Shown: positions 1,295 to 32,000 of the stretch, in pieces
How positions within the stretch are numbered: the stretch's first letter is position 1
How the letters are laid out: the number at the start of each line of letters is the position of its first letter
NCBI RefSeq assembly: GCF_024753565.1
Contig: NZ_JANTPT010000001.1
Coordinates: 870,513-902,512 of the forward strand
DNA length: 32,000 nucleotides
Reading direction: 5' to 3'
From: Mechercharimyces sp. CAU 1602
Lineage (GTDB): Bacteria > Bacillota > Bacilli > Thermoactinomycetales > JANTPT01
Program-made: the position numbers and the translations under genes
The notes under the pieces: model-generated
What the model was told of the DNA's origin: nothing
What the model saw: the letters and a program-made list of their open reading frames with translations, nothing else
The model's database searches: none

Positions 1295-1314
1295 TAAAGG
1301 GGGAAAAGATAGTA

Positions 1315-2580: not shown

Positions 2581-2641
2581 GAATGGGGTCACTAAGAAGT
2601 AAGGCTTGCTTTGTATTATAAAGAGAAAGGGGGAATGAGCG

Positions 2642-5856: not shown

Positions 5857-5874
5857 TCGTTAGGTATAGTTAAA

Positions 5875-5902
5875 AGCACTCGCTCTAGCGGGTGCTTTTT
5901 TT
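5875..5902 (+). terminator. Rho-independent terminator after the ABC permease
   Basis: AGCACTCGC-tcta-GCGGGTGCT forms a 9-bp stem with one G.U pair, followed by a T-run. It lies 19 nt after the stop codon. Confidence 0.8.
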
Positions 5903-6049
5903 AGATCAGCTCGTCTTGCTCATAAGCGATGGTCTCCTGTTGCATGTTGGGGAAGATGTAGGAATAAGTATTCATTGACATCCTACTGTTAGCGTGATCC
6001 GATGGTCCGCAGTTATAGTTACATTTTCTTTGGAGGAGGGCGTATCCAA

Positions 6050-8155: not shown

Positions 8156-8207
8156 ATCAGGAGTTAAAATGTCCTATGCTAGATTAAGAGATCTGGATAT
8201 GGCTTAT

Positions 8208-8235
8208 AGCACTCGCTCTGGCGGGTGCTTTTTTT
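8208..8235 (+). terminator. Rho-independent terminator after the SBBP/collagen gene, a near copy of the one at 5875-5902
   Basis: AGCACTCGC-tctg-GCGGGTGCT followed by a T-run. It differs from the 5875-5902 terminator by one loop base. Confidence 0.8.
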
Positions 8236-8418
8236 CTGTGACTATCTTGTGCCGATGCAGGTGTTGCCGCATGATTACATAGAGGGTTGTGGTAGAATAA
8301 ATAGCGATATCATAAGAGAAAAGTGATCGATCTTAACAATATATACGCATGGTGAACGCACGCGCGCCTTTAAAACGAGCGTGATGTTGAAGTGGGTTGG
8401 TGTGAGGAGGACATCTAT

Positions 8419-9369
8419 ATGCAGAAAGCATTAAAAGGATTTTCCGTATTTGCTGCCTTTAGTACTTATCTGATTCTCCTGATGGGGGCACTCGTGACAA
8501 AGACGGGATCGGGTGAAGGGTGTGGGCGAACATGGCCGTTTTGTCATGGAGAAATTTTTCCTAGCTATGCTACCGTGACTACGATGATCGAGTATAGCCA
8601 TCGTGCGGTATCCGGCTTTGTCGGTTTGGTGGTTGTTATCCTGGCGGTATGGGCATGGCGTACGTTTAGGAAGGATTTTACAGTTAAGTTGTTAGCTTTT
8701 ACAAGTGTTTTCTTTATCGTCCTACAAGGATTGTTGGGAGCGGCTACCGTGGTATGGGGACAAGAAGGTAGTGCGTGGCGTGAAGATATGACGATGGCTC
8801 TTCACTTCGGTTTCTCATTGATCTGTTTTGCTGCAGTCGCGCTCTTATCTGTTTATCTTTTTCAAAAGACGGCTGGACGAACGAAGACGACGGCGGAGAA
8901 GCGTGCCGGATTAAGCAATCGCTTACGTTACTTTATCTGGGGATATGCGTGTTATGTGTACCTAGTCGTTTATACAGGTGCTTATGTACGTCATGCGGGT
9001 GCAACGATGGGATGTTCCTCTTTTCCTCTATGCGGAGACCGTTATTTACCTGACTTGGTTACGCCAGCAGGTGTACAAATAACGCACCGCTTATTTGCGA
9101 TTACTGCCTGGGTATTGGCGATTGTGCTCTTGGTTTGGATTGTACGTCATTATCGCCAGCGGCGGGACTTGTACTGGGGCAGTATTGCGTCAGTGATTTT
9201 TGTTACATTGCAAGCGGCCAGCGGCATTGCTGTTGTACTGACTCCTTTTTACTTGGTGATGGCTCTCACCCATACGACTATCGTCTCACTCTTTTTTGCT
9301 GCCCTTTGCTATCTCTGTTTACAAGTAGGGTGGCCGTTTAGGAAAAATGCGTCGAGCAAGAATGAATAG
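8419..9369 (+). CDS. ctaA: Heme A synthase (COX15/CtaA family)
   Basis: MQKALKGF...GALVTKTGSGEGCGRTWPFCHG...IEYSHR matches the CtaA N-terminal signature, including the Cys pair and His ligands. The protein is polytopic, with a second half carrying HR/H motifs (ITHRLFAI, LTHTT). GAGGAGG at 8405-8411 favours ATG 8419 over 8392. Confidence 0.88.
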   Translation: MQKALKGFSVFAAFSTYLILLMGALVTKTGSGEGCGRTWPFCHGEIFPSYATVTTMIEYSHRAVSGFVGLVVVILAVWAWRTFRKDFTVKLLAFTSVFFIVLQGLLGAATVVWGQEGSAWREDMTMALHFGFSLICFAAVALLSVYLFQKTAGRTKTTAEKRAGLSNRLRYFIWGYACYVYLVVYTGAYVRHAGATMGCSSFPLCGDRYLPDLVTPAGVQITHRLFAITAWVLAIVLLVWIVRHYRQRRDLYWGSIASVIFVTLQAASGIAVVLTPFYLVMALTHTTIVSLFFAALCYLCLQVGWPFRKNASSKNE

Positions 9370-9395
9370 ACATTCAATCTGCAATCCAGTATACT
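9367..9395 (+). promoter_or_regulatory. Putative sigma-A promoter of the rib leader (-35 TAGACA, 17-nt spacer, -10 TATACT)
   Basis: TAGACA lies at 9367-9372 and TATACT at 9390-9395, about 40 nt upstream of the riboswitch aptamer. This is a motif match only. Confidence 0.45.
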
Positions 9396-9432
9396 TTACG
9401 TTAGATGTACACAAGTGAATAGCAGTACTGTA

Positions 9433-9577
9433 CATCCTTCGGGGCTGGGTGAAAATCCCGACCGGCGGTGATGGTAGCATCTGTTACCTCAGTCCGTGAC
9501 CCGTTATGCCTTTGTGTATGCGGTGGACCTGGTGAAAATCCGGGACCGACAGTGATAGTCTGGATGGGAGAAGGGTG
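9433..9577 (+). promoter_or_regulatory. FMN riboswitch (RFN element) aptamer
   Basis: CTTCGGGGCTGGGTGAAAATCCCGACCGGCGGTGAT...AGTCCGTGACCCG...GCGGTGGACCTGGTGAAAATCCGGGACCGACAGTGATAGTCTGGATGGGAGAAGG closely follows the conserved RFN core as remembered from the B. subtilis ribD leader. It sits directly upstream of ribD. Confidence 0.92.
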
Positions 9578-9737
9578 AACAGGAGCGGTCGCTAATAATA
9601 TTGCTGTAGGGCTTGAGGGAGACTACGGGTAGTTTTCTTTCGTGCGCTTTTACTAGTGATAATGATGCGAATAGATACGTTTGGCATGAAGGCTTCTTTG
9701 TGTTGGCGTAAAACATGACCCTCCTGATTCCCTCATG

Positions 9738-9768
9738 AAAGCCCTGATTTGAATATAGGGCTTTTTTT
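9738..9768 (+). terminator. Riboswitch expression-platform terminator (attenuator) upstream of ribD
   Basis: AAAGCCCT-gatttgaatat-AGGGCTTT followed by a T-run. It lies 20 nt before the ribD start. Confidence 0.75.
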
Positions 9769-9788
9769 GATGTATGGGGAGGCTATAT

Positions 9789-10913
9789 ATGAATCGACAG
9801 GAAGAATGGATGCGACTAGCGCTTACGTTAGCGCAGAGTGCAGAAGGATATACGTCCCCCAACCCGATGGTGGGTGCTGTCATCGTAAAAGAGGGTCGGT
9901 TAGTGGGTAGTGGTGCTCATCTGCGAGCAGGAACTGCCCATGCTGAAGTCCACGCATTAGCGATGGCAGGTGCCGAGGCGGAGGGGAGTACTTTATATGT
10001 AACGTTAGAACCGTGTAGTCACCATGGGCGTACGCCTCCATGTACCGATGCCGTTATCAAGGCCAAAGTGGCTAAAGTGGTGATTGCAGTACAAGATAAT
10101 GATGAACGCGTGTCCGGTAGTGGGATTGAACGGTTGCGACAAGCTGGAATCGAAGTGGAAGTAGGATTGTTAGCCACAGAGAGTCGTCAGCTAAACGAAG
10201 CTTATTTTCATCACCGCCGTACAGGTCGTCCCTTGGTTACCTTGAAAACGGCCATGACGCTGGATGGTAAAATTGCAACATCAAGTGGGGATAGTAAGTG
10301 GATTTCTAATGAAGAGTCGCGCGCGGCCGTTCATCTTATGCGGCATCGTATGGATGCGATCATGGTAGGGATTGGAACTGTGTTGACAGATCGTCCGCAG
10401 TTGACTGCGCGCCTACCCCAAGGGGGAAAAAACCCGGTGCGTATAATCGTAGATTCTAAACTGCAAATACCACTCGATACCCCTGTAGCAGATACCAGCG
10501 TAGCAGAAACGTGGGTATACTGTACAGCAACAGCGGATCCTCGCAAACGAACACAATTACAAGAGCGAGGAGTAAAAGTGTTTACTTGCGGAGAGGGTGT
10601 ACAAGTTGATCTGCCAAAATTAATGGAGCACCTAGGCGAGCACAATATCTTATCCGTGCTGGTTGAAGGCGGAGGAACCTTAAACGGGTCTTTACTGATG
10701 GAAGATGTCATCGATCGCGTGGTTACCTTTATTGCCCCGAAATTGGTCGGAGGTGCAAACAGCCTTTCTCCAATTGGTGGAGAAGGCATTTCCAATATGG
10801 ATGATGCTGTTACCATCAGCAATATTCGTGTTCAATCTTTAGCTGATGATGTGATGATCAGTGGTGAGGTGTGCAAAAGGAAGGGGAGTGATTCCCGATG
10901 TTTACAGGATTGA
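9789..10913 (+). CDS. ribD: Bifunctional diaminohydroxyphosphoribosylaminopyrimidine deaminase / 5-amino-6-(5-phosphoribosylamino)uracil reductase
   Basis: The CMP/dCMP deaminase zinc motifs HAEVHAL and PCSHHGRTPPC are present, followed by a reductase half (TLDGKIA..., VEGGGTLN). GGGGAGG at 9776-9782 favours ATG 9789. Confidence 0.93.
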   Translation: MNRQEEWMRLALTLAQSAEGYTSPNPMVGAVIVKEGRLVGSGAHLRAGTAHAEVHALAMAGAEAEGSTLYVTLEPCSHHGRTPPCTDAVIKAKVAKVVIAVQDNDERVSGSGIERLRQAGIEVEVGLLATESRQLNEAYFHHRRTGRPLVTLKTAMTLDGKIATSSGDSKWISNEESRAAVHLMRHRMDAIMVGIGTVLTDRPQLTARLPQGGKNPVRIIVDSKLQIPLDTPVADTSVAETWVYCTATADPRKRTQLQERGVKVFTCGEGVQVDLPKLMEHLGEHNILSVLVEGGGTLNGSLLMEDVIDRVVTFIAPKLVGGANSLSPIGGEGISNMDDAVTISNIRVQSLADDVMISGEVCKRKGSDSRCLQD

Positions 10914-11548
10914 TTGAAGAAGTGGGAACGGTACAGCACTTAGTGCAACAAGGGCAGACGATGAAATTGACGATTGCGTGTAAAGAGGTGTTAGATGGAG
11001 TAGCTCTTGGAGATAGCATCGCGATTAATGGTGTTTGTCTCACTGTGGTTCACTTCGATCATCGCTCGTTTACAGCGGACGTGATGCCAGAAACGATGAA
11101 ACATACACAGCTACATTCTTTACAGCGCGGTTCCTTCGTTAATTTGGAACGAGCGATGGCAGCTGGTGGACGTTTTGGTGGTCATTTCGTTCAAGGGCAT
11201 GTGGATGGCGTTGGTACCATCTTGGAACGTAAGCCTGTGGAAAATGCGGTTCTTTTCCGTCTTCAAGTACCGAGGGAATTAACCTCTTATATGATTGAAC
11301 GAGGCTCGATAGCCTTAAATGGGATTAGTTTAACATTATTTGAAGTTCGTGAGGATCAGATTGTGGTCTCCATCATTCCTCATACGCTAGCACAGACGCA
11401 ATTACAAACGGCGCGTGTAGGGGATCCGATTAATGTGGAGTGTGACATGATGGGGAAATATGTGCGCAAACAATTACAAATGTTGGTATCTGAATCTAGC
11501 GGTGAAGGGTTGACCAAGGAGAAATTGATCAACCTCGGATTCGCTTAA
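10898..11548 (+). CDS. ribE: Riboflavin synthase alpha subunit
   Basis: [10 protein letters not shown] is the hallmark N-terminus. The internal duplication ([11 protein letters not shown] / [10 protein letters not shown]) is present. The gene overlaps the ribD end by 16 nt. Confidence 0.93.
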
Positions 11549-11562
11549 AGGAGGGGTCGTTC

Positions 11563-12762
11563 ATGGGAGCTTTTCACCCGATAGAAGATGCGATCTACGA
11601 TCTAATGCAAGGGAAGATCGTGATTGTTGTCGATGATGAAGATCGTGAAAACGAAGGCGATTTTGTTGTCCTCGCAGAGAAGGCTACGCCAGAAGTGATC
11701 AACTTTATGATTACACATGGGCGTGGATTGGTCTGTACACCACTTACGGCTGAGCGAGCAGAAGAATTGGATTTGTCGTTAATGGTGAACCACAATACCG
11801 ATACACATGGTACCGCCTTTACCGTATCTGTTGATCACTATGATAGTACCACCGGAATATCTGCGTATGAGCGCTCAGCTACCATTCGTGCGCTGATAGA
11901 TCCGCAGGCACAACCGCGAGATTTCCGTCGTCCTGGACATGTGTTTCCTCTGATCGCCAAAGAAGGAGGCGTGTTACGGCGTGCAGGTCACACGGAAGCA
12001 TCGGTAGATTTGGCTCGGATGTGCGGGTCATATCCGGCTGCTGTGATATGCGAAGTGGTTAAAGAAGATGGTACGATGGCACGTGTGCCCGACCTGATGG
12101 AAATTGCAGATGAGCACGATCTTAAAATCATCACCATCCAGGACCTGATTCAGTATCGCAATAAAAAAGAGAAGTTGGTAGAGCGTGTCGCTTCCGTGCG
12201 GATGCCTACTCCTTTCGGTGAGTTTCAAGCGATCGGATATAAGAATGAATTGGATCAAAAAGAGCATGTGGCATTGGTAAAAGGAGAGATCGATCCGACG
12301 AAACCAGTGATGGTACGTGTTCATTCTGAGTGTTTGACCGGGGATGTGTTGGGTTCATATCGTTGCGATTGTGGACCCCAACTTCATACGGCGTTAGCGC
12401 AGATTAACGAAGAAGGTTCTGGCGTGCTCCTGTATATGAGGCAAGAGGGGCGCGGGATTGGACTGTTAAATAAATTACGTGCTTATGAGCTTCAAGAACA
12501 AGGTTATGATACGGTAGAAGCAAATGAGAAGTTGGGTTTTAAGGCTGACTTGCGTGAGTACGGTATCGGGGCCCAGATTTTGCGGGATCTTGGTGTGTGT
12601 CAGATGAGGCTACTAACCAATAACCCCCGCAAAATCACCGGTCTAAAGGGATATGGCTTAGAGGTGACGGAGGTATTACCGATTCAGTTGCCGGCCAATG
12701 TAGATAATGAACAGTACTTATATACGAAAAAAAGTAAACTGGGACATCTCTTACACTTTTAA
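11563..12762 (+). CDS. ribBA: Bifunctional 3,4-dihydroxy-2-butanone-4-phosphate synthase / GTP cyclohydrolase II
   Basis: The DHBP synthase half carries [11 protein letters not shown] and RAGHTEA. The GCHII half carries [15 protein letters not shown] and EGRGIGL. SD AAGGAGGGG is upstream. Confidence 0.93.
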
Positions 12763-12798
12763 AAGAAATAAAGAACATGACAAAAGGACGTGACAGTG

Positions 12799-13269
12799 AT
12801 GGGGAAAATTTATGAAGGTCATTTAGTTGGTAAAGGACTTCGCATTGGGATTGTAGTTGGACGGTTTAATGAATTTATCACGGGCAAATTGTTGGGTGGC
12901 GCTCAAGATGCACTTCGTCGTCATGGAGTAGATGAAGCAGATGTAGATATTGCATGGGTACCGGGGGCATTTGAAGTTCCTTTGATTGCGGATCAGATGG
13001 CATCTTCTGCGCGCTATGATGCCGTGATCACCTTAGGTGCTGTAATTCGTGGCTCTACGCCTCACTTCGATTATGTATGTAACGAAGCGGCAAAAGGGGT
13101 ATCTGCGGCCAACTTAAAACATGGTCTGCCTATCATCTTTGGTGTTCTTACAGTAGATACAATCGAACAAGCAATAGAGCGTGCAGGTACGAAAGCGGGT
13201 AACAAAGGTTGGGAAGCAGCGACTTCTGCTATAGAAATGGCCAACTTGACACGGGAATTGAACAACTAA
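12799..13269 (+). CDS. ribH: 6,7-dimethyl-8-ribityllumazine synthase
   Basis: [25 protein letters not shown] and [10 protein letters not shown] are lumazine synthase motifs. ATG 12799 aligns with known N-termini better than GTG 12790. Confidence 0.92.
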
Positions 13270-13299
13270 AGAGGGAGAATCAGTGGAAGTGGAGCGGAG

Positions 13300-13329
13300 A
13301 AGAAGGGAGAGTAGTCTTCCTTCTTTTTT
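13300..13329 (+). terminator. Rho-independent terminator of the rib operon
   Basis: AAGAAGGGAGA-gtag-TCTTCCTTCTT forms an 11-bp stem with one G.U pair, followed by TTTTTG. Confidence 0.7.
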
Positions 13330-13358
13330 GTGGTACGTCTAAGGAGGAGGGCAGAATC

Positions 13359-14123
13359 ATGGATATTAAGATTAAGCTGGAAACATTTGAAGGTCCGCTC
13401 GACTTACTTTTACAATTGATCGAACGCTCAGAATTAGATATATATGATGTCCCGATCGCCCGTATAACGGATCAGTATTTGGCGGTGTTGGACCAGATGC
13501 AGGAGCGGCAATGGGATGTGGCCAGTGAATTCCTGGTGATGGCAGCGACGCTATTAGCAATAAAAAGTCGCATGTTGTTACCACGTCAAGACCCATTGCT
13601 CGAGGATAGTATAATGGACGACGGTTTGGCGATGGATCCGCGAGAAGAGTTGGTTCAACGACTGTTGGAGTATAAAAAATATAAACGACTAGCACAAGAG
13701 CTCCGAGAAAAAGAGGGAGAGTGGCAGCAAGTATATACACGCGACCCGATGGACTTGACCCCTTATATGGAAGAGCCTAATCCAGTACAAGGGATACGCT
13801 CTGATGATTTATTGGAGCTGTTTATTGGCGCGTTGCGACAGCAGCAAGAGCGGATGGAGGCTGAAGAGCCGATGACCAATATGACACGAGAGGAGATATC
13901 CGTCAGTGATCGGATGGATGAAATCTTGCGTACCGTACAGTCCATAGGGGAACAAACCTTTACACAGCTGTTATCGTATGAAGTATGGACACGCGAGCGC
14001 GTGATTACGACATTTTTAGCTGTGCTGGAACTGATGAAAACGAAGCAGATTTATTGCTATCAGCGAAGCGTCTTTGCCGACGTTGTGATTACGGCGACCA
14101 GGGAAGGGGAGAGCCAAAGTTGA
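13359..14123 (+). CDS. scpA: Segregation and condensation protein A
   Basis: FEGPLDLLLQLIERSELDIYDVPIARITDQY is the ScpA signature. AAGGAGGAGG at 13341-13350 sets the start at ATG 13359. The upstream part of track ORF 13209.. overlaps ribH and the terminator. Confidence 0.9.
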   Translation: MDIKIKLETFEGPLDLLLQLIERSELDIYDVPIARITDQYLAVLDQMQERQWDVASEFLVMAATLLAIKSRMLLPRQDPLLEDSIMDDGLAMDPREELVQRLLEYKKYKRLAQELREKEGEWQQVYTRDPMDLTPYMEEPNPVQGIRSDDLLELFIGALRQQQERMEAEEPMTNMTREEISVSDRMDEILRTVQSIGEQTFTQLLSYEVWTRERVITTFLAVLELMKTKQIYCYQRSVFADVVITATREGESQS

Positions 14124-17074: not shown

Positions 17075-20000
17075 ATGTCTAATAAGAGAAAACGACGATG
17101 GATACATAAAAGTTTCATGATCTTATTTGTATGTATATTCCTATTTACGAGTGTGGCCCCTGCTCCCGCAGCCTTAGCGGCAGGAAGCGCACCAACATCT
17201 ACAAACGATGCCTTATTCGGAGGGTCTTGGGCTCACGTATTTAGCTCGGTGTGGCTTCAGACCCGTGCGACTGGCGAAAAGGTGTTGGCGCAAGTAAAAG
17301 AAGTTTTTACAACGGAAGAGGAAGAGGATAAGGAGGGTGAAGAACCCACCGATCCGGAGGAGGGAAAGGAGGAAAGCGATGACCCACCTGAGATTGTAAA
17401 AGAACGGGAAGAAGAACGCGATGCCCATACGAAAGTGTTTGAGCTCGAGGATGGGCGCATGCAAAAAGAAGTGAGCGCCACCCCGGTTCACTATGAAAAT
17501 GAGAAAGGGGAGTGGGAAGAGATTCAACTGGGAGTAGAAGCTTCGGATGAGTCCAAGTTTGTCCTCTCGAATGAATCCAATACGTTCCAAACCCACTTTG
17601 GCAAAACAGCGGATCAATTGGTGCGTTTTGAACAAGGGGATCATCGGATTGAGATGAAAGCCCTGGAAGCGAGCGATGTGGTTCCAGAAGGAAAAGAGCA
17701 TCAGGTAGTGTTTAAACAGCTGTGGCAGCAGACCGATCTTTTGTATGACATTGGTCCAGATTCGCTCAAAGAGACGATTCGTATGAATAGTGTCCCGACG
17801 AACCCGGTCTATACCTTTGAGTTCACCTTGACAGGACTGTATGCAGAACAAAAAGAAGATGGTGCCATCGCCTTCTTTAGTAAGAAAGATGACACATTGG
17901 TCTACATGATACCGAAACCGTTTATGATGGACAGCAAGGAAGATCCAGAGTCTCCCTATGGGTTTTCATACAGTGAAAACGTGACGCAGACGATGGAAGC
18001 CGACGGCGATACATTAACGGTGACGTTGGCGGCAGATGAGGAATGGTTACAAGCGGAGGAACGGGTCTATCCGGTCTTGTTGGACCCCACCATTGTCCTT
18101 TCACCACCGGAAAAAGAGAGTCAAGATACGTATATTAATAGTGGAAACCCTGATCAGAACTATGATAACACTTGGCAAATGAAGGTGGGAACCAGTAGTG
18201 GCGGTTCCAAATACCGGGGACTGGTCCGCTTTAACCTAGACACCATCCCGGAAGGGGAGCGCTTAGATCAAGCGACCCTATCCCTGTATTATGATCAGGA
18301 TATCTATCTCCCTGAAGGGGGAGATACGTATAGCGTCCCAATCACGGTTCATAAAGTAAAAGAAGCGTGGGATCCCGATTCGGTGACGTGGAAGTACGCA
18401 GGCGAAGGAGATAACTGGAAGGATGGCGGGGCTTATGACGCGACGGCCCTCGATCAGGAAACGAAACAGGTTGGGCACACCAATCGCTGGCACCGCTTTA
18501 ATGTCACCTCCACCGTTCAGTCGTGGTTAAACAAAAGCAGTAAAAACTATGGGTTTTTGCTCAAAGCGAAAACGGAGTCCAACAATCATGGGGGCACGGT
18601 TTACGTCACAAGTGAACTCTATGATCCGACGATCCCCGTGCGACCGAAACTGACCCTGATCTATGGTCAACCCAGTGTCACAGTGAAAGAACCACAAAAG
18701 ATTCATAGCACAGGGGCAGAACTGGAGTGGTCCAAGTTTGCTGATGGGGAGGAGTTTGTGGAGTACCAGGTGCACCGCAGTACCGATCAGCAGTTTGTTC
18801 CCGATGCGTCTACGCTCGTCACTCCGATTGATGACCGCTTCGATATTCGCTTTACGGATACTACCGTGGAGCCCACCCCCATCGAAGATGAGAACCGTGT
18901 CGGTCAAATCTACTACTATATGGTGGCCGTGAAGACGAAAGATGGAAAATTGCATCCTTCCAGCACCGTAATGGCACAACTACCGAAAGCGGGACTTACA
19001 CGCGTCTTGGTGCGGGGTGCGGAAGATACAACCCTATCGAGTAAAAAGTCGAGTACGAACTTGAACGATATTGAGCGCTACCCTTGGCTTCAAGTGGGCA
19101 TTAAGGGGAACGAATATGGAACGACCCGCTCCGTGTTTGATTTTGACCTTAGTATGATCCCAGAAGATGCGCAAGTGTTTGATGCCCAGTTTCAGGTATG
19201 GGCATGGTACATGTGGCGTCCTCAAGGGGTGACGGGAAAAGCCAAATATCGACTGCATGAGTTGACTCACCGTTTTGATGAGTCCAGTGCGACCTGGAAA
19301 ATAGCGGCCAATGGAGATAACTGGACTGATGGTGGACAATATGACTCTACCGTCCTGGACGAAATCTCGGAAATATCGAATGACTCGCGCTGGCGAACGT
19401 TTGATGTGACCGGAGTTGTAGGGGATTGGGTTACAGGCAAAAAGAAAGAGTATGGTTTTATACTCAAGCAAGCCGATGAGGGCAGTGAGAAGAATAGTGA
19501 ACGAACCTTGTTCCTCAATAGCGAGGCACAAGAAACGTCCCTCCGTCCAACCCTTGAAGTGATCTACACTACACCGACGACGGAAAGCACCTATCATACG
19601 ACGGATACCCCACAGGTGATGGAGGGCGGGGAAACATATGACATCGATATCACCCTCACCAACACGACAGATCGTATCTGGAAACAAGGGGAGCAATCGG
19701 TGGCCTATCGCTGGGCCGACCTACAGACGCCGCAAGGAACCGATCGCGTCAATCTCCCTAAAGACGTGAAGCCGGGAGAGACGATTCGCTTGAAAGCGGA
19801 AGTGCATGCGCCGCAGTTGAAAGGAAAGGGCGCGTACCGCGAATCCCGGATGATCGAGTGGGACCTGATCGACCACAACGGGAAGTGGCTGTCCGAGCAT
19901 GCCCAAGGCATCCCTGCTCTGCAACAGGCGATTGTTGTGGAATCGAAGCCCGACGCCAAAAAGCTGGGTTTTGAACCGGATCGCGGCCTGATCACCGAGC

Positions 20001-26000: not shown

Positions 26001-28693
26001 GCGGCCAGAAGGTCGTCTTGACCGACAAAGCCGATGGCGTCGTCATCGCCGATAGCATCAAGCTAGTGGAGAAGGCGCCGATGAAGACGGATAAGAAAAC
26101 CTTCACCTACGATTACGACCTGAACGGCAACCTGACGGAGCTGGAAAGTCAGACGCCAGAAGCGGCAGAAGCCTACCGAATCGACTATAACGACCTCGGT
26201 CAAGTGGAAGCCCTGCAAAAAGTGGTGGGCGATCAGGTGCAGCAGACGGTCGGGTATGCCTATGATGTCAACGGTAACTTAACCAAGCGCGCGTATGGAG
26301 GCACCACGCAGACATACACCTATACCGAGCGCAACATGCTACAAGCGATCCAGGAACAAGGCAACGAGAGCGCCGACCCTCGCACGTGGTCGTATGCCTA
26401 CACCAAGCGGGGGCAAGTGAAGCAGACGAACGAGCCCAACGGCAACGTCACGCGCTTTGAGCACTACGCCGACGGCCTACTCAAAGCGAAGACCACGACC
26501 AAGGGCGATGGCACCGTGCTCAACCAGCACGAGCTCACCTACAACGAGAACGGTCACCGCATCGAAGAAGCCTTACAACTGCTGGACGCCGACGGGAACA
26601 AGGTGGAGAGCAACACGAAGTACGAATACGATCCCCGTGATCGCGTCACCTCGATGGTAAAAACGGGCGACAACCCGCTCACCGAGTCGGTGGTGTTAGA
26701 TGCCAACAGCAACATCGTTTCCCACACGCAAGATGGGAAAACGAAAACCTACACCTATGACCGCAATCGTATGATGACGCAGACCGCGGAGGGGAAGACC
26801 CAGCAGTACGACTACGACACCACCGGTCGCCTGCACACGGTTACCCAAGGGAAGCAGGTGGAAGAAAGCTACGCCTATGATGGCTTTGACCGCCTGAAGG
26901 AACACACCAAGCTTCAAGAAGATGGTACGCTGAACACATCTCAGTATACGTACGATGCGTTTGACCGGACAATGAGTAAAACCGGCAATGCAGGGACGGC
27001 AGAGGAGACAACCACCGACTTCCACTACCTGGGCTTGTCGGAGGAGATACTAAGCGAAGAAGTGGCCGGCAAGATTACGCGCTCCTACACGTACGCTCCC
27101 TGGGGACAGCGTCTCTCCATGACGCATCATGAAAAAGGAGAAACCTCCTACTACGGCACCAACACCCGCGGCGACGTGGAGATGTTGTATGATGAGAAGG
27201 GGAACGTCCGCGGCACCTACGGCTACACGATGTACGGCGAAGACCAACAAAGCGCCTTCACCGGAGTAGACCAACCGGGGAATGCCCTGTACAACCCGTA
27301 TCGTTACACCCAAAAACGCTGGGACGCAGATACCAACAGCTACGACCAGGGTTTCCGGAATTACAACCCAAGTCTAGGCCGCTTCCACACACGGGATATG
27401 TATAGCGACGCGGCACAGGATATGGGACTGGCGATGGGTTTAGCGACAAACAGTCGCTACGCATTCGCAGGAGGTAATCCGGTATCGTATAGCGAATTGG
27501 ATGGTCATATTCCGGTAAAAGAAGATACCAGGACGGCGATGAAGGATATCCAGGATGCAGGGTTTGACTATTCTCCAAGCAAGGGATTAACGCCAAAGCC
27601 AAATCCAAAGCCTAGGACAAAGCCGAAACCGAAACCATCTCCATCAACGAGCAGCAAATCGAGCAAACCATGTTATCAGAGTAAAACTAACTATGGTTGT
27701 GGTAGCACTAAGCCAAATGCAGCTGACAAAGTCATTATTGGAATGGGTACGCAGTTTGCCGATGGAGTGACCGGATTATGGGCTTGTGGTAGTGACGTGG
27801 CAGGTTGCTATAGTAGCACGGCTGATTTTTACAAGTTGGCATGGAATGATCCTACAGCAGCAGTAAGTCAGACTTGGAATGGTTCTGGGATTGTAGAAGA
27901 CTGGCGAGATGGCAATTATGGAGGTTCTATTGGAAGAACGATAACTTCAGCATTACCATTAGTAGCAGCCCGCAAGGCATTGAAAACACCTGAAATGTGT
28001 TTTGTTGCTGGGACATTGATTCTTACCTCAGATGGTGAAAAGCCCATCGAAGAAATCGAAGTCGGGGATAAAGTTCTCTCCAAAAACGAGAAAACAGGAG
28101 AGATGGAATACAAAGAAGTCACCCAACTCTTCCAGCGTGAAGTGGACGAGATTTACGAAGTTCATGTTGATGGAGAAATGATTGAAACCACGGATGAACA
28201 TCCTTTCTGGGTGAAAGGTCAAGGCTGGATGAGTGCACAAGATCTCCAGACAGGAGATGAGCTGGAAACCAGTGAAGGTGATTTCCTTTCAGTGGAGAAA
28301 GTAATCCGTAAGAAGCAGGAAAACCCCGTCAAGGTGTACAACTTTGAGGTAGCGGATTTCCACACGTATTTTGTTTCGGATCTGCATGTATTTGTGCATA
28401 ACAAGTGTGTAGTAGGTGATAAAGATGCATTTGTTCCGGAAGAACATTGGGAGAAAAAAGCTGAGCACTTTGGGACACCAGGAACCCAGTATGACCACTA
28501 CAGGTATTACAAAGGTAAGTGGGAAGAATCTAGAGTCATTTATGACTTTGCAGGTAGACAACAATATAGAGTAGATCTTGCCGATCACAGCATGCCTGAA
28601 TCACATTCTATTCCTCATTTACATGAATACAAGTATGATGATCCGGGATATGGAATAAAAGGAAAAGAGTTCGTTTATAATTTCTGGGAATAA
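17075..28693 (+). CDS. Secreted RHS/YD-repeat polymorphic toxin, 3872 aa. Order: signal peptide, 2x DNRLRE-like domain, FN3, Ig-like domain, YD repeats interrupted by 5 golvesin-C-like domains, RHS core, linker, Hint, C-terminal toxin
   Basis: A single uninterrupted ORF with SD GAGAGGAAA 8 nt upstream. The Sec-type signal is KRKRRW plus a hydrophobic core plus ALA|AG. There are many YD repeats (YTYD..GN, YEYD..GN, Y.YD..GR). The RHS core end reads YYGTNTRGDVEMLYDEKGNVRGTYGYTMYGE...NPYRYTQKRWDADTNSYDQGFRNYNPSLGRFHTRDMY...GGNPVSYSELDGH. Then follow the Hint domain and a variable tip. Confidence 0.95.
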   Translation: MSNKRKRRWIHKSFMILFVCIFLFTSVAPAPAALAAGSAPTSTNDALFGGSWAHVFSSVWLQTRATGEKVLAQVKEVFTTEEEEDKEGEEPTDPEEGKEESDDPPEIVKEREEERDAHTKVFELEDGRMQKEVSATPVHYENEKGEWEEIQLGVEASDESKFVLSNESNTFQTHFGKTADQLVRFEQGDHRIEMKALEASDVVPEGKEHQVVFKQLWQQTDLLYDIGPDSLKETIRMNSVPTNPVYTFEFTLTGLYAEQKEDGAIAFFSKKDDTLVYMIPKPFMMDSKEDPESPYGFSYSENVTQTMEADGDTLTVTLAADEEWLQAEERVYPVLLDPTIVLSPPEKESQDTYINSGNPDQNYDNTWQMKVGTSSGGSKYRGLVRFNLDTIPEGERLDQATLSLYYDQDIYLPEGGDTYSVPITVHKVKEAWDPDSVTWKYAGEGDNWKDGGAYDATALDQETKQVGHTNRWHRFNVTSTVQSWLNKSSKNYGFLLKAKTESNNHGGTVYVTSELYDPTIPVRPKLTLIYGQPSVTVKEPQKIHSTGAELEWSKFADGEEFVEYQVHRSTDQQFVPDASTLVTPIDDRFDIRFTDTTVEPTPIEDENRVGQIYYYMVAVKTKDGKLHPSSTVMAQLPKAGLTRVLVRGAEDTTLSSKKSSTNLNDIERYPWLQVGIKGNEYGTTRSVFDFDLSMIPEDAQVFDAQFQVWAWYMWRPQGVTGKAKYRLHELTHRFDESSATWKIAANGDNWTDGGQYDSTVLDEISEISNDSRWRTFDVTGVVGDWVTGKKKEYGFILKQADEGSEKNSERTLFLNSEAQETSLRPTLEVIYTTPTTESTYHTTDTPQVMEGGETYDIDITLTNTTDRIWKQGEQSVAYRWADLQTPQGTDRVNLPKDVKPGETIRLKAEVHAPQLKGKGAYRESRMIEWDLIDHNGKWLSEHAQGIPALQQAIVVESKPDAKKLGFEPDRGLITEPTGAGTALTANLFEGNTMFDYTPFANPSRGFATAPQMTYNSRDFSDSLVGPGWSFALTNMMRLGTPSNSKGVKMVNGKIESGKVFMIDGDGTQYSFTYDKGKKKFVGPKGIHLSLKLHSTKDKARMWKITAKDGSKYYFDDKGYVSETTDRNGIKMTYTYESRRIGNHNVKLLRYLTDTEGRRTIKVEYYSSKETSNLKIQQQVKRLTDISGYKVEFAYDHEGRLTQITEGAGSKEERKYQLSYEFNLLRTITDPKGNTTKAYYDDGGHLTKIIDRQGEETTIHYRTTLDDKEQPVTLVTDPMGRQMATTFNDQGKPIEVVNANNEKTRYEWDDELNLVKQIAPNDATATWTYDDNGNVLTYKSPLYHQQQQAQQQAAEEANVLEKLWDKVTGAVEKAPLVGTAGTTGKGYTQYAYDYREEGQVADLVQSVSPEGRVTTYEYNDEGHLLKVHAPQGNTLSSYDDAKKRYRVETSGNYTTTYTYHKGGLGLLESVKDAKGRVSRYTDYDANGQPQTITDPAGNVTRLHYGKRGEVLQVTDALGNTSTYTYDTFLRPLTSKVPKDASAGEYITIPAPVYDENDNIVKAVSPNGAHVTYTYNKNDWVTSATLPKDSEKGPIRKITYQYDKMGNLIRETQPKGNHQEGVITLDNRDDAHIASGIWGTSTNMPGYRGEDYQYNRVGGGDTFTWNFQLPEDGEYRVSVNYAQARDRAIDAPYTLKTKDGDVTKRVDQTTNGGTWVDLGIHPFASGANQIVQSDDASEGTYVIADAIRIEKVNEGEEKKETADGSTQYIYDRLNRVQAVVNSQGHRVTYEYDQVGNVTQVTEPKGVASDDPDDYRTTYEYDVNGRAIKETDALGNSIAFAYSPDGLLTRVTDEEGNVTTASYDQNGNLIEMRTPHDDGENVTQYVYDQVGNLTETITPRGVATSAKGDYTHKTIYDELDRVKEVIYPRDPNSQDPREREEQKLSYEYDPLSRITDIIAPASEGQALRNQTKLTYFDNGWIKETTDPHQIKTRYQYNDLGQTTQRTLLGEDGTKTREMTWDYFPDGKVKKEVDIGENRDIVVVESTDSKVEVDGIWNKSGVCTWDVSSFQDGTTNDDAEIYLTSTDPVRQSSVTFYQKEGGEWKEIGEDPAFVEKSRVVPARGEVKAVIKGPARGQVTYEMHEYDPDNPDEYIGKCTVDTSLRNVAGDGNQSFTWNVTPPQDGEYDVYAQYVSGSDRATDAPYTIHFEGGTDVKKVNQQESGSQWVWLGTYPFRAGSGGKVTLTDRANGTVSADSVRLVRRGEKEARFVDEDEDEGEAVDATTQLEKLTTTCTWKDAGAYADGPKEDPVHMAELYLKKDQADGKESHAVFYRGDKGKWTKLGEDTFTEQSAIVSFPETGELKVEITQPVGGESTFHLQEYDPDDNGENPDEYVGVCYADTKEPEQKWTFSDEITSVWIVDDADAFKDGTNGQAEFFLKKSRYDGKKTKAVFYEGRDGNWKKIGEDDGFTLKSSSVNYTPGGKLKIVVTQPLGGVSSLNLYEDDTEGLEDVHVASHALPTVLGDGFRWKGRGTGEGTFTWKLKTEESGEYTVYAHAAGGPTSATNAPYTIHHADGKTEKRVNQQAYAGEWVKLGTYRFDAGTSYPLVLSDEANGKVSADGIKMVWAGPTGAVIDNTDDAHVKAEGDWTERDDVTTECTWDGIDAYHDGTAPPLKAELYLEKDQADGQSTSVTFYDRSGDEWKKIGEDPDFLEKSAVASSEGKEAKAEITHAVDSTSTYHLMEYDPDDPVENEDEHIGSCDAQRPEGENYAQVEKGDGSSTFTWNLDLKQNGAYAIYVKGLKHSAYATDAPYTIHHESGTDTVNVNQRERGDEWTLLGTYPFQKGENPRVVLSNKANGTVVADSLKIVKAEPRELVFDNAEASANAGGSGWTTSSNVPGYYGKDYLWNEEGSGADTITWNLDIPKTMEYTVYARYLSYKDRASDAPYTIYHADGKKTVDVNQQERGSEWVELGTYSFDKGSGQKVVLTDKADGVVIADSIKLVEKAPMKTDKKTFTYDYDLNGNLTELESQTPEAAEAYRIDYNDLGQVEALQKVVGDQVQQTVGYAYDVNGNLTKRAYGGTTQTYTYTERNMLQAIQEQGNESADPRTWSYAYTKRGQVKQTNEPNGNVTRFEHYADGLLKAKTTTKGDGTVLNQHELTYNENGHRIEEALQLLDADGNKVESNTKYEYDPRDRVTSMVKTGDNPLTESVVLDANSNIVSHTQDGKTKTYTYDRNRMMTQTAEGKTQQYDYDTTGRLHTVTQGKQVEESYAYDGFDRLKEHTKLQEDGTLNTSQYTYDAFDRTMSKTGNAGTAEETTTDFHYLGLSEEILSEEVAGKITRSYTYAPWGQRLSMTHHEKGETSYYGTNTRGDVEMLYDEKGNVRGTYGYTMYGEDQQSAFTGVDQPGNALYNPYRYTQKRWDADTNSYDQGFRNYNPSLGRFHTRDMYSDAAQDMGLAMGLATNSRYAFAGGNPVSYSELDGHIPVKEDTRTAMKDIQDAGFDYSPSKGLTPKPNPKPRTKPKPKPSPSTSSKSSKPCYQSKTNYGCGSTKPNAADKVIIGMGTQFADGVTGLWACGSDVAGCYSSTADFYKLAWNDPTAAVSQTWNGSGIVEDWRDGNYGGSIGRTITSALPLVAARKALKTPEMCFVAGTLILTSDGEKPIEEIEVGDKVLSKNEKTGEMEYKEVTQLFQREVDEIYEVHVDGEMIETTDEHPFWVKGQGWMSAQDLQTGDELETSEGDFLSVEKVIRKKQENPVKVYNFEVADFHTYFVSDLHVFVHNKCVVGDKDAFVPEEHWEKKAEHFGTPGTQYDHYRYYKGKWEESRVIYDFAGRQQYRVDLADHSMPESHSIPHLHEYKYDDPGYGIKGKEFVYNFWE
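27958..28411 (+). repeat. Hint-coding repeat, copy 1 (in the expressed RHS gene)
   Basis: 454 nt, collinear with 29721..30175 (455 nt, the extra A) and, from 28034 on, with 31433..31810 (378 nt each). Confidence 0.9.
27998..28402 (+). other. Hint (pretoxin-HINT / bacterial intein-like) domain inside the RHS protein
   Basis: The domain starts at Cys (CFVAGTLILTSDGEKPIEEIEVGDKV), has a TxxH-type block (IETTDEHPFW) and ends ...HVFVHN. It spans about 135 aa with no endonuclease insert. Confidence 0.85.
28403..28693 (+). other. Variable C-terminal toxin tip (CT1), family not recognised
   Basis: KCVVGDKDAFVPEEHWEKKAEHFGTPGTQYDHYRYYKGKWEESRVIYDFAGRQQYRVDLADHSMPESHSIPHLHEYKYDDPGYGIKGKEFVYNFWE. It lies immediately after the Hint HN. 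Sequence diverges completely from the two downstream cassettes at this point. Confidence 0.7.
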
Positions 28694-28766: not shown

Positions 28767-29360
28767 ATGGAAAATTTTTTGGATGTTAAACCCCTCGATT
28801 GCTTTGTAGATGTAGACTCACAAGAAAAACTTGATGACTTCTTTAAATTAACACATAATCTTCATGATGGCTTAATTAAAGAGATGCATATCATAAATGA
28901 AGCCTATGTAGATAGTGATCTGTCAATGTCGGCTGATTTCCAATATAACCTCAGGATTCTCATTCAAAAGCAATGGAAAAATCCATCTGCGATAGAGATA
29001 TTACTTGGGAACGTTAGCAAATTAGATTTGGTGGAGTCCAACTATTTGTCTAATGCATTTGGTGAATACAAGGAAAATAAGATGAATGGGAAAAAAACTA
29101 TTAAACTCGATTTTGATTGTAATAGAATAACTTGTTCAAGGATGCTATATCGTGATGCTTCCAATTGGATGGGTAGAGAGAGTCGCTTTGGAGAAGAAAT
29201 TGTTCTATCCTCTCTAATGCCTGTAGAAGATTTAGGAGAGGGATGGTACATGTGTACAAATTGCACACATACTTGGAAGCCAAATAATCGATTAATCAAA
29301 CGTTGCCCAAATTGTGGGGGTAAGAACAGTGGATATGGATGGATAAGTAGCCCGAGTTAG
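28767..29360 (+). CDS. Putative cognate immunity protein for CT1, with C-terminal CxxC...CxxC zinc ribbon
   Basis: It is the first gene after the toxin stop, on the same strand, AT-rich, with no signal peptide. The C-terminal motif is CTNCTHTWKPNNRLIKRCPNCGG. The role is inferred from position only. Confidence 0.6.
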   Translation: MENFLDVKPLDCFVDVDSQEKLDDFFKLTHNLHDGLIKEMHIINEAYVDSDLSMSADFQYNLRILIQKQWKNPSAIEILLGNVSKLDLVESNYLSNAFGEYKENKMNGKKTIKLDFDCNRITCSRMLYRDASNWMGRESRFGEEIVLSSLMPVEDLGEGWYMCTNCTHTWKPNNRLIKRCPNCGGKNSGYGWISSPS

Positions 29361-29638: not shown

Positions 29639-29725
29639 GTGAAGAAACCACTACCGTTCTACAATAGCAAGGAGTGGAAGAAGGCACGTGAGTCGGTTCT
29701 GATACGTGGCAACTACCTGTATTAG
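29639..29725 (+). pseudogene. 5' fragment (28 codons) of an HNH-endonuclease-like gene, cut off at the orphan-cassette junction
   Basis: GTG-initiated VKKPLPFYNSKEWKKARESVLIRGNYLY* resembles the N-terminal FY.S..W...R..VL.RD.Y.C..C region of small phage-type HNH endonucleases. The reading frame ends where the Hint repeat begins (29721). Confidence 0.45.
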
Positions 29726-30175
29726 TAGCAGCCCGGAAGTTATTGAAAACACCTGAAATGTGTTTTGTTGCTGGGACATTGATTCTTACCTCTGAAGGCG
29801 AAAAGCCCTTCGGAGAAATCGAAATTGGGGATAAAATTCTCTCCAAAAATGAGAAAGTAGGAGAGATGGAATACAAAGAAGTCACCCAACTCTTCCAGCG
29901 TGAAGTGGATGAGATATACGAAGTTCATGTAGATGGAGAGGCCATTGAAACCACGGAAGAGCATCCTTTCTGGGTAAAAGGTCAAGGCTGGGTGAGTGCA
30001 CATGACCTTCAGTCAGGAGATGAGCTGGCAACTAGTGAAGGTGAATTTCTTTCAGTAGAGAAAGTAATCCGTAAGAAGCAGGAAAAACCCCGTCAAGGTG
30101 TACAACTTTGAGGTAGTGGATTTCCATACGTATTTTGTTTCGAATCTGCATGTATTTGTGCATAATCAGTGTGTA
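29721..30175 (+). repeat. Hint-coding repeat, copy 2 (orphan cassette 1)
   Basis: Starts at ATTAGTAGCAGCCCG and ends at ...GTGCATAATCAGTGTGTA. Differences from copy 1 are scattered and mostly synonymous or conservative. Confidence 0.9.
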
Positions 30176-30481
30176 TTAGATAAAGGGGCTCCAACTCATG
30201 TATACTTGGGTTTGAAAAATGGAGAAATTACTTATGTGGGAATTGCTAAAGATCCAGCCAAACGTGCTCAACAGCATGGAGATAGATTTGATTTGTTAAC
30301 ATCAATTACTACTGAACCATTGAGTAGAAGGAGGGCTCGAGCAATTGAACAGTCATTCATCAATGATAATCCTCACTTCTCGATTAAAATTAATAGCACC
30401 AGCCTGAGAAGATCATGGTATGATGATGCAGTTGAATGGGGAGATAATTGGAGAAGGAAAAATGGGTATAAGACAGATTAA
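29743..30481 (+). pseudogene. Orphan cassette 1: Hint domain plus GIY-YIG-like nuclease toxin (CT2), split by a +1 frameshift
   Basis: Track ORFs 29743..30111 and 30098..30481 are the two halves. Together they parallel residues LKTPEMCFVAG...VFVHN of the main gene. The A5 run at 30083-30087 replaces the A4 run of the main gene (28320-28323) and shifts the frame. There is no SD or promoter, and the frame has no ATG upstream of the Hint Cys other than the one immediately preceding it. Confidence 0.8.
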
Positions 30482-30569: not shown

Positions 30570-31058
30570 ATGGATCATTTGGTTAAGATGATTCCCTCAA
30601 GAAAAAGACCAAAGAGAGGGGACGTGTTTGTTATTCAGCCGAAAGAAGGCATCTATGCTTTTGGGCTTGTTGTTCGTATTAAGATTCCAAGTGAAAATTT
30701 GATGATTAATGGTATGAGCCTTGTATATGTATACAAGTTTCTTTCATTAAAAAAGGAAGTTCCAAAGGATCTGATGTCGCAAGATCTCCTTTTTCCACCC
30801 CAAATTATTAACAACCAAGGATGGTTAAAGGGTTACTTTCAAACAATAGGGTTCTTGGATATAACTGAATTTATGAAAAGAGATTATGGTTTTTGGGATA
30901 TTACTATAAAGAAAATAGTCGATGAAGAAGGAAATCCAATAAATCATAAACCTAAATATATCGGTGATTATGGAGTCGGAAGCTATGGATCGATTTCATA
31001 TGATGTGAAGCGTGCTTTAGATGAATTTCCTGAGTTGTTAGAGGGAATTAAGGGATAA
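30570..31058 (+). CDS. Putative immunity protein for the GIY-YIG-like orphan toxin
   Basis: A 162-aa ORF directly downstream of CT2 on the same strand, AT-rich, with SD AAAGGGG 9 nt upstream and no signal peptide. The role is inferred from position. Confidence 0.55.
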   Translation: MDHLVKMIPSRKRPKRGDVFVIQPKEGIYAFGLVVRIKIPSENLMINGMSLVYVYKFLSLKKEVPKDLMSQDLLFPPQIINNQGWLKGYFQTIGFLDITEFMKRDYGFWDITIKKIVDEEGNPINHKPKYIGDYGVGSYGSISYDVKRALDEFPELLEGIKG

Positions 31059-31414: not shown

Positions 31415-32000
31415 GGCAGGCGACTTGCAGAGGGCGAAAAACCCATTGAAGAGGTCGAAGTGGGGGACAAAGTTTTCTCCAAAAACGAGAAAACAGGAGA
31501 GATGGAATACAAAGAAGTCACCCAACTCTTCCAGCGTGAAGTGGACGAGATTTACGAAGTTCATGTCGATGGAGAAATGATTGAAACCACGGATGAACAT
31601 CCTTTCTGGGTGAAGAGTAGAGGATGGACGAAAGCGAAGAATCTCCAGTCAGGAGATGAGCTAGAAACCAGTGAGGGAGAAATTCTTCCGGTTGAGCAGG
31701 TGGTTCGCAAGAAGAAGGAAAACCCCGTCACAGTGTATAACTTTGAGGTAGCGGATTTCCACACGTATTTTGTTTTGGATATGCACATCTTTGTGCATAA
31801 CAAGTGTGTAGACGAAGCGAAAATGAGTGGTCAATTACGTGAAGCAGCGGCAGATAAGGGGAATTTTGGAATTGGTGAAGGCAGTTCTAATGAAGCTGAT
31901 TTGATGGGTAAAGCATGGGTTGGCCCTGGATATAAAATAGCTAGTGATGGTAAAACTCATGTGAGTTTGGATGGTATGAGGCAGTATCGTCCACCAAGTT
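31415..32000 (+). CDS. Orphan cassette 2: 5'-truncated Hint domain (lacks Cys1) plus third toxin tip (CT3), continuing past the right edge
   Basis: Absent from the ORF track because there is no ATG start and it runs off the edge. The frame is open from 31415: GRRLAEGEKPIEEVEVGDKVFSKNEKTGEMEYKEVTQLFQREVDEIYEVHVDGEMIETTDEHPFWVKSRGW...IFVHNKCVDEAKMSGQLREAAADKGNFGIGEGSSNEADLMGKAWVGPGYKIASDGKTHVSLDGMRQYRPPS... It is probably silent as it stands. Confidence 0.7.
31433..31810 (+). repeat. Hint-coding repeat, copy 3 (orphan cassette 2, 5'-truncated)
   Basis: Contains a 139-nt tract (31476..31614) that differs from copy 1 (28077..28215) at a single position. Ends at ...GTGCATAACAAGTGTGTA, exactly as copy 1 does. 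Confidence 0.9.

Follow-up and report, generated by a model that had tools for sequence, protein, structure and literature searches.

The window analyzed in this study is a stretch of 32,000 nucleotides from Mechercharimyces sp. CAU 1602 (contig NZ_JANTPT010000001.1, positions 870,513 to 902,512). A single open reading frame (ORF) of 11.6 kb (17075-28693, plus strand) encodes a giant, Sec-exported protein of the RHS/WapA type with 3872 amino acids (aa). Pfam searches identified DNRLRE/disaggregatase-like domains at its N-terminus, DUF6531, RHS repeats (nine stretches matching RHS_repeat), five Golvesin_C inserts, and one PT-HINT domain near the C-terminus. The subject of this report is the C-terminal part of the protein, where two putative self-cleaving modules precede a toxin tip. 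It is near certain that these modules are an Rhs core end and a PT-HINT domain of type A among the intein-like domains of bacteria (BIL). Judging from their sequences, both probably cut in the 3872-aa protein, and the tip is probably freed at the bond between N3776 and K3777. The tail that follows the Rhs core consists of 394 aa (163 in a spacer, 135 in the HINT domain, and 96 in the toxin) and has a mass of 44 kDa. An earlier, sequence-only reading of this DNA had described two self-cleaving devices in series. All of its coordinates and motifs (ELDGH, the K/P linker, GVTGLW, Cys1, TTDEHPFW, and an Asn followed by K-C) agree with the translation of the window, and the distance between ELDGH and the Hint domain, given as about 160 aa, is 163 aa (H3478 to C3642).

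Rhs core end

The NCBIfam model for the Rhs core (TIGR03696) matched at the end of the YD repeats. The match covers model positions 1-76 of 76 with 46.2 bits against a cut-off of 32.5, and its last residue is H3478. The motif ELDGH (27494-27508, residues 3474-3478) had been taken for the core end at an autoproteolysis boundary; this holds, as the TIGR03696 match ends with the motif and the motif sits where Rhs/WapA proteins cut.

The chemistry of such core ends has been studied in several proteins. In RhsA of P. protegens the catalytic residues are D1324 and D1346, the chain is cut four residues past D1346, and mutation of either Asp blocks release (PMC8765631). For WapA-CT1 of the Gram-positive S. 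suis, the site was mapped by Edman sequencing, and the chain is cut past the His of TDPSGH (PMC12704120). The catalytic set of the B. inaquosorum TLP (BiTLP) is R2103, D2116, and D2140 (PMC13018210). In the 3872-aa protein the candidate equivalents of the Arg and of the first catalytic Asp (Asp1) are Arg3428 and Asp3441. The second catalytic Asp (Asp2), which belongs to the terminal motif DPxG[L/W/H], is not present; its position holds Glu3474. Counting from the conserved NP (NP plus four residues) likewise puts E3474, not D3476, on Asp2. It has been suggested in the sequence-only reading that the Asp of ELDGH should be mutated; by the alignments, Glu3474 and not Asp3476 is the residue to choose.

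A family sample was obtained by searching giant proteins with the 95-aa core alone, and the 120 proteins listed (relatives P0235-P0352) were compared. E[LIMV]DGH ends all 120 of these giant DNRLRE/golvesin-type RHS relatives, in 112 cases as ELDGH. The relatives come from two phyla and include Streptomyces, Micromonospora, Actinoplanes, Marininema, and Salinithrix. A HINT domain is found in 17 of them, while 103 have none. Because these 103 relatives keep the motif, E[LIMV]DGH is selected for in its own right. By this conservation the Glu is a conserved acidic variant of the family, not a sign of decay or loss, and the data would fit a functional acid protease in which Glu takes the part of Asp. 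We rejected the idea that the HINT domain compensates for, or replaces, a dead Rhs protease, since the Glu motif occurs equally in the 103 relatives without HINT and is thus uncoupled from it. No published description of a Glu-containing E[LIMV]DGH variant of the Rhs autoprotease motif was found.

HINT domain

The second module matches PF07591 (PT-HINT) with an E-value of 3.6e-33 and 115.2 bits (cut-off 27.7) over positions 1-136 of 137. AF2 modeled the domain with a predicted local distance difference test (pLDDT) score of 89-98, using a 112-sequence alignment (A1). The best match of the model in the PDB by Foldseek is 2LWY, the A-type BIL of C. thermocellum (E 6e-16, TMt 0.95, root-mean-square deviation 1.0, 48% identity), and phmmer relates the two sequences with an E-value of 6.4e-34. 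The catalytic set is complete: C3642, T3706-H3709, and H3775-N3776, whose columns are at least 90% conserved in A1, together with D3761-F-H-T-Y. The earlier identification of a complete Hint domain is borne out by the nearly full-length Pfam match, the presence of all catalytic blocks, and the fit to 2LWY. Cys1 is C3642 (27998-28000); it is the sole Cys of the domain and is preceded by P-E-M (27989-27997). The TTDEHPFW block lies at 28187-28210.

The catalytic residues are nearly invariant among relatives. Of 228 domains, 221 have Cys as residue 1, as do 175 of 182 related single-HINT toxin proteins; HN is retained in all but two of the domains examined. The residue after the Asn (+1) behaves differently: it is T, S, or C in 48% of the 182 single-HINT toxin proteins and any other residue in the rest. 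It is Lys or Gln in all four HINT copies of the genome, and the endings HN-K-C, HN-Q-C, and HN-K-C reported for the three copies in the window were confirmed. These counts support the view that the +1 residue is not selected as a nucleophile across the family. The domain is likely a cleaving rather than a splicing one, because the variable +1 residue sits beside invariant catalytic residues. It has been shown that type A BILs form the N-terminal thioester, cyclize the Asn, and cleave at both ends, with cleavage products dominating over ligation (PMC4031507; PMC7765530). The preference of the sequence-only reading for cleavage over splicing agrees with both the +1 statistics and the behavior of this class. 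A classical splicing intein was considered and rejected, given the Lys or Gln at +1, the polymorphic-toxin host, and the lack of an endonuclease domain. No solved structure of an Rhs-HINT protein was found; the entry 8W20 is Streptomyces UmbC1, in which HINT and toxin are unresolved.

Hint domains also occur in tandem. Among the representative hits, P0015, P0023, P0031, P0083, and P0126 contain three or four in a row; the junction is HN-K-G-G-C, which places Cys1 of the next domain 3-4 residues past the previous Asn.

Table 1. Positions (numbered within the window) of the features of the 3872-aa protein and of the genes and cassettes downstream of it.
Feature	Position	Strand	Basis
Rhs repeat-associated core, residues 3384-3478; shell plug/aspartyl-autoprotease region ending ELDGH	27224..27508	+	TIGR03696; phmmer to RhsA 7Q97, SGS1/SGS4
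Arg3428, counterpart of BiTLP R2103; candidate Asp1 follows 13 residues later	27356..27358	+	Sequence; Arg-to-Asp1 spacing equals that of R2103-D2116 (PMC13018210)
Asp3441 (GRFHTRD), candidate catalytic Asp1	27395..27397	+	Alignment places it on the first-DPxG Asp in RhsA from P. protegens (GRFTTPDPI)
Glu3474, where DPxG[L/W/H] has its catalytic Asp2	27494..27496	+	Alignments: seldgh against idpdgq of SGS1 (phmmer)
Predicted Rhs scissile bond, His3478-Ile3479	27506..27511	+	Homology to S. suis WapA-CT1 and RhsA
Spacer, residues 3479-3641, 163 aa, 17.3 kDa, pI 9.3	27509..27997	+	Between H3478 and C3642
PT-HINT/A-type BIL domain, C3642-N3776, 135 aa, 15.6 kDa	27998..28402	+	PF07591, AF2, Foldseek, phmmer
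Block B, T-x-x-H, T3706-H3709; role: N-S acyl shift at Cys1	28190..28201	+	Aligned with TFDH of 2LWY; fragment H231 and P232 invariant in A1
Blocks F and G, D3761-F-H-T-Y ... V-H3775-N3776	28355..28402	+	Fragment H285, H297, and N298 at least 90% conserved in A1
Predicted cyclizing Asn3776; predicted scissile bond N3776-K3777	28400-28402 (Asn codon)	+	VFVHN end, then K-C
Toxin tip, C-terminal, 96 aa, 11.6 kDa, plus stop codon; begins K-C-V	28403..28693	+	Conserved part from FVPEEHW, nine residues past the Asn
Cys3778, +2 after the Asn, only Cys of the toxin tip	28406..28408	+	Conserved flanking Cys family-wide
Candidate immunity gene, 197 aa, C-terminal zinc ribbon	28767..29360	+	Directly after the toxin; weak Zn-ribbon matches only
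Orphan cassette 1: second Hint copy, frameshifted	29721..30185	+	90.6% identical to 27958-28424 (blastn); Pfam
Orphan cassette 2: Hint copy truncated at the 5' end	31428..31811	+	87.8% identical to 28029-28412 (blastn); PF07591 E 2.6e-27

Distribution of the architecture

The arrangement of the two modules was surveyed in the 150 best representatives drawn from 1.8 billion proteins. An Rhs core, a spacer of 53-282 aa, and a PT-HINT domain occur in one chain in 58 of the 150, most of which have a perfect DPxGH. The tail past HN in single-HINT relatives has a median of about 104 aa. Such proteins are named "polymorphic toxin-type HINT domain-containing protein" by NCBI and are abundant in Paenibacillus and Brevibacillus. 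It has been predicted that HINT, located just upstream of the toxin and with RHS among the stalk types, mediates autoproteolytic release (Zhang et al. 2011/2012). In 2026, teneurin-like proteins with a YD shell were reported whose C-terminal domains are annotated as "HINT toxin" (PMC13018210), and Streptomyces UmbC1 carries HINT and toxin at its tip. An Rhs core, a spacer, a PT-HINT domain, and a toxin of about 100 aa therefore represent a common and already described design, which is not peculiar to the 3872-aa gene. Of the two devices in series described in the sequence-only reading, both modules are intact; their combination is a widespread architecture and nothing special to this gene. In a paper of mid-2026, PT-HINT is still "predicted to facilitate toxin release," and we found no published experiment that shows an Rhs cut and a HINT cut in one protein.

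Predicted release of the toxin

The following course of events is proposed for the 3872-aa protein. With the folding of the YD shell, the Rhs core would act as an intramolecular acid protease (R3428, D3441, and E3474) and cut after His3478, leaving the 44-kDa tail inside the shell or attached to it. The A-type BIL/PT-HINT domain would then process itself: Cys3642 would form a thioester at the N-terminal junction, and cyclization of Asn3776, helped by His3775 and block F, would break the N3776-K3777 bond and set the toxin free. Lys after the Asn makes classical splicing impossible, so cleavage should dominate. Dual cleavage is plausible: by the residues and their homologs, both bonds are probably cut at these places, and possibly in this order.

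A number of points weigh against this course of events. No experiment on the 3872-aa protein or on any Rhs-HINT toxin was found. In ELDGH the canonical Asp2 is changed to Glu and the neighboring Pro to Leu. The distance from Asp1 to the Glu is 33 residues here compared with 22 in RhsA and 24 in BiTLP, and the known cases are of the Asp-Asp type. The tail exceeds the cargos reported for YD shells (about 15 kDa; the shell measures ~44,000 cubic angstroms; PMC13018210), so folding of the HINT domain inside the shell is in doubt. In type A BILs, ligation of the flanks can occur as well, at low yield (PMC4031507). Finally, a strongly conserved Cys just past HN is not accounted for by a simple release model.

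Some of these points would also be expected if the HINT domain were the only cutter. The Rhs core with Glu for Asp2 would then be a non-cleaving plug, as the uncleaved cores of teneurins are (PMC8765631), with the tail threading its way out of the shell. The replacement of Asp by Glu and of Pro by Leu within DPxG[L/H] and the size of the tail relative to the shell cavity are in line with such a plug. We nevertheless consider it unlikely. E[LIMV]DGH stands in all 120 relatives, 103 of which lack HINT or any other recognized releasing peptidase, and both R3428 and D3441 are kept at the canonical spacing. In most of the other Rhs-HINT proteins DPxGH is still perfect, so HINT is no general substitute for the Rhs cut. 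Cleavage by both modules is therefore the reading that we retain.

Cysteines flanking the HINT domain

A Cys is found at positions +1 to +6 after HN in 184 of 193 single-HINT toxin proteins (95%), most often at +2. A second Cys stands at positions -1 to -6 before residue 1 in 144 of the 193 (75%), most often at -2 ("C-N-C"). The remaining tail of these proteins contains 0.27% Cys, and the consensus reads C-N-C ... H-N-x-x-C. Both flanking Cys are retained in actinobacterial variants with Ser as residue 1 (Ser1). The 3872-aa protein has the downstream Cys (C3778) only; its upstream flank, P-E-M-C, carries none. This family-wide pattern points to a disulfide from flank to flank and not to a nucleophile. 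No published discussion of conserved Cys flanking PT-HINT was found.

A different timing of release can be drawn from these counts. The Cys past HN might form a disulfide outside the cell, in the majority of relatives with the Cys at -2, and either hold the toxin or delay cleavage until reduction in the target cell, so that HINT processing would be redox-gated or the toxin tethered. The enrichment of both flanking Cys over the rest of the tail and their survival in Ser1 variants speak for it, as does the fact that Cys3778 is the sole Cys of the toxin and Cys3642 the sole one of the HINT domain. It has also been reported that cleaved fragments of BiTLP are joined by a disulfide (PMC13018210). 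Yet the upstream Cys is not there in the 3872-aa protein, no published test was found, and the variable spacing of the Cys could have another cause. On balance redox gating or tethering seems doubtful for this protein, and release by two cuts is preferred.

Two features of the family may be new, although we put this forward tentatively. The first is the clade-wide, invariant E-[LIMV]-D-G-H that replaces DPxG[L/H] in Actinomycetota and Thermoactinomycetaceae and would represent a Glu-containing variant of the Rhs autoprotease. The second is the pair of Cys flanking PT-HINT (at about -2 and +2/+3), which survives in Ser1 variants and would suggest that a disulfide spans the excised Hint and either tethers the toxin or makes its release depend on the redox state.

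Spacer

The spacer between the two modules has a short helix and a hairpin at its N-terminus, a linker rich in K and P (27593-27646), and four Cys (C3533, C3542, C3571, and C3578) in a segment that includes GVTGLW (27764-27781). No match to Pfam or NCBIfam was found even at permissive thresholds (E<=10 or E<=1). Apart from the helix and hairpin, AF2 gave a pLDDT of 29-46 (fragment residues 33-158). The sequence-only reading had proposed, with reservation, a PT-TG-like pretoxin region. This identity was rejected: PF14449, whose motif is P-x-x-G ... TG ... TG, did not match the whole spacer or its Cys-rich part at E<=10, hhalign gave a probability of 0.1% in a comparison with PT-TG segments from three relatives that bear HINT, and the pLDDT was 30-40. 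The three references (P0091, P0158, and P0169) were picked by a PT-TG motif pattern, and all have a precomputed PF14449 match. An hhalign comparison with 121 spacers of the family likewise gave no match, since the sequence directly past E.DGH is polymorphic.

A MAFFT alignment places GVTGLW opposite a hydrophobic motif rich in Gly (GHAALDV.G..P..GE.AD..N..WY) that precedes HINT in Micromonospora relatives; significance was not reached. Micromonospora and other actinobacterial HINT-bearing relatives (P0238, P0099) have a common pre-HINT module after ELDGH, in which LFGMSW is followed by this motif. The same relatives use Ser1 (SFVPGT). The sole database echo of the Gly-rich module is the T domain of diphtheria toxin, which stayed below threshold (E 0.021). 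The module of the actinobacterial relatives might be a membrane-active element.

Toxin tip

The toxin tip has no match in Pfam or NCBIfam. Just five homologs were detected, some with HINT and some without. The AF2 model has a pLDDT of 57, and Foldseek returned no PDB match with an E-value under 0.6. Within the tip family (28430-28690) F-V-P-x-E-x-W, E-S-x-V-x-Y-D, Y-R-V-D, D-H, and H-x-x-P-H-L-H-E are invariant, a pattern rich in H, D, and E. Members follow HINT, stand immediately after an Rhs core (DPDGQ), or occur as short stand-alone proteins in Lysinibacillus.

Orphan cassettes and genomic context

A comparison of the main gene with the downstream region by blastn revealed three Hint-sharing cassettes with 81-91% identity. 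In orphan 1 the Hint end reads HN-Q-C (30068-30200, shifted frame); after it come a tip that resembles GIY-YIG and an Imm26 gene (30570-31058). Orphan 2 (31415-31840) reads HN-K-C, and a third, unrelated tip follows. The third orphan, which is the fourth Hint copy of the genome, lies just past the end of the window. The DNA shared by orphan 1 starts 40 nt before Cys1 and ends 22 nt past the Asn codon. In orphans 2 and 3, which are truncated at the 5' end, it starts inside Hint, and the shared DNA of all three ends 10-29 nt past the Asn codon. The Hint-coding DNA could thus serve as a homology handle by which the downstream orphan Hint-toxin-immunity cassettes swap the tip. As in the Maf islands, the Hint segment also acts as a handle for recombination.

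The array runs for at least 14 kb past the window (window-relative 32889-33346, 37233-37526, 40918-41212, and 45303-45589). Beyond the window three further orphans share Rhs-core DNA instead; one has a DLDGH core end, and two break off within the core.

The length of the tail also bears on the role of the Hint segment. Past E.DGH, tails without HINT measure 230-284 aa (5th-95th percentile; median 257, n=103) and tails with HINT 389-411 aa (median 400, n=16), in a sample that is phylogenetically clumped, mostly Streptomyces, and not independent. The 3872-aa protein, with 394 aa, falls among the latter. Since the difference equals one HINT domain, the lengths hint that HINT is a clean insertion in a size-constrained tail, with a non-HINT cargo of about 257 aa.

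It could be argued from these data that Hint is mainly a genetic device, that is, a recombination handle or a semi-selfish, intein-like insert that excises itself and ligates spacer to toxin, and not a toxin-releasing protease. Orphan cassettes whose identity to the Hint DNA stops so close to the Asn codon and tails that are longer by almost exactly one HINT domain would be expected of such a device. Moreover, type A BILs splice at low yield without a +1 nucleophile, and a handle role has been proposed for MafB. A plain DNA handle, however, would not need Cys/Ser1, TxxH, and HN, which are near-invariant over hundreds of diverged copies. The +1 residue is not kept as a nucleophile, and BIL cleavage products dominate in vitro. 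We therefore regard a mainly genetic role as very unlikely; the roles of handle and protease are compatible, and a Hint domain that both releases the tip and assists its exchange is preferred.

The genome has a size of 2.93 Mb, and the G+C content of the window is 47%. The nearest homologs of the Rhs core are found in Marininema halotolerans and Salinithrix halophila (78% identity), which makes a host in the Thermoactinomycetaceae probable. Among the upstream genes scanned (605-14120), which have housekeeping roles (two-component system, ABC transporter, rib operon, scpA), no gene for SrtB or for a SecF-like protein was detected.

Comparison with known systems

The picture of polymorphic toxins is unchanged by this locus. 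It is a well-preserved, complete example of an Rhs-HINT-toxin gene with an immunity candidate and several orphan cassettes, and it would be a convenient model for testing release. The Glu-for-Asp core motif and the flanking Cys are small, testable leads on the timing of that release.

The HINT domain resembles the C. thermocellum A-type BIL (2LWY) over 135 residues, with Cys1, TxxH, DFHTY, and the terminal HN in common. As is typical of the A-type class, it has no +1 nucleophile and lies immediately ahead of the polymorphic tip, in that portion of a secreted protein which is hypervariable. Unlike the hosts of A-type BILs, the 3872-aa protein has a giant RHS shell; the flanks are P-E-M before the Cys and K-C after HN, and activity is predicted here from the sequence.

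The protein as a whole is similar to S. suis WapA-CT1 and the Sec-dependent Gram-positive Rhs/WapA proteins (PMC12704120), which share a length of more than 3000 aa, a Sec signal, a DNRLRE-type N-terminal region, DUF6531, and a split RHS region. In both, the Rhs core ends x-x-x-G-H, after the His of which the cut of WapA-CT1 was mapped, and a large (~50 kDa) fragment of pre-toxin and toxin follows. The two proteins differ in that WapA-CT1 has TDPSGH (with Asp), a PT-TG pre-toxin, and no reported HINT, whereas ELDGH (with Glu), an unassigned spacer, and HINT are found here.

The order of RHS repeats, pre-toxin region, HINT, toxin, immunity gene, and orphan cassettes is that described by Zhang et al. 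Their work predates the discovery of Rhs core autoproteolysis; two cutters are not explicit there and follow from joining both literatures.

In class 1 MafB of Neisseria (PMC4287609, PMC4524018) a type A Hint of ~140 aa likewise stands between a conserved region and a toxin of 80-100 aa, and silent cassettes carry Hint-coding DNA as the shared recombination sequence. The MafB carrier, in contrast, is DUF1020 in a Gram-negative host and has no first (Rhs) cutter.

Finally, BiTLP, T6SS RhsA, and TcC of Tc toxins (PMC13018210, PMC8765631) share with the 3872-aa protein the core fold, the Arg, Asp1, an acidic residue four before the (here predicted) cut, and, by prediction, a cargo retained in the shell. 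BiTLP and RhsA have an Asp-Asp pair with a spacing of 22-24 residues and a cargo of ~15 kDa; in the Mechercharimyces protein the pair is Asp-Glu, the spacing is 33, and the cargo is 44 kDa.

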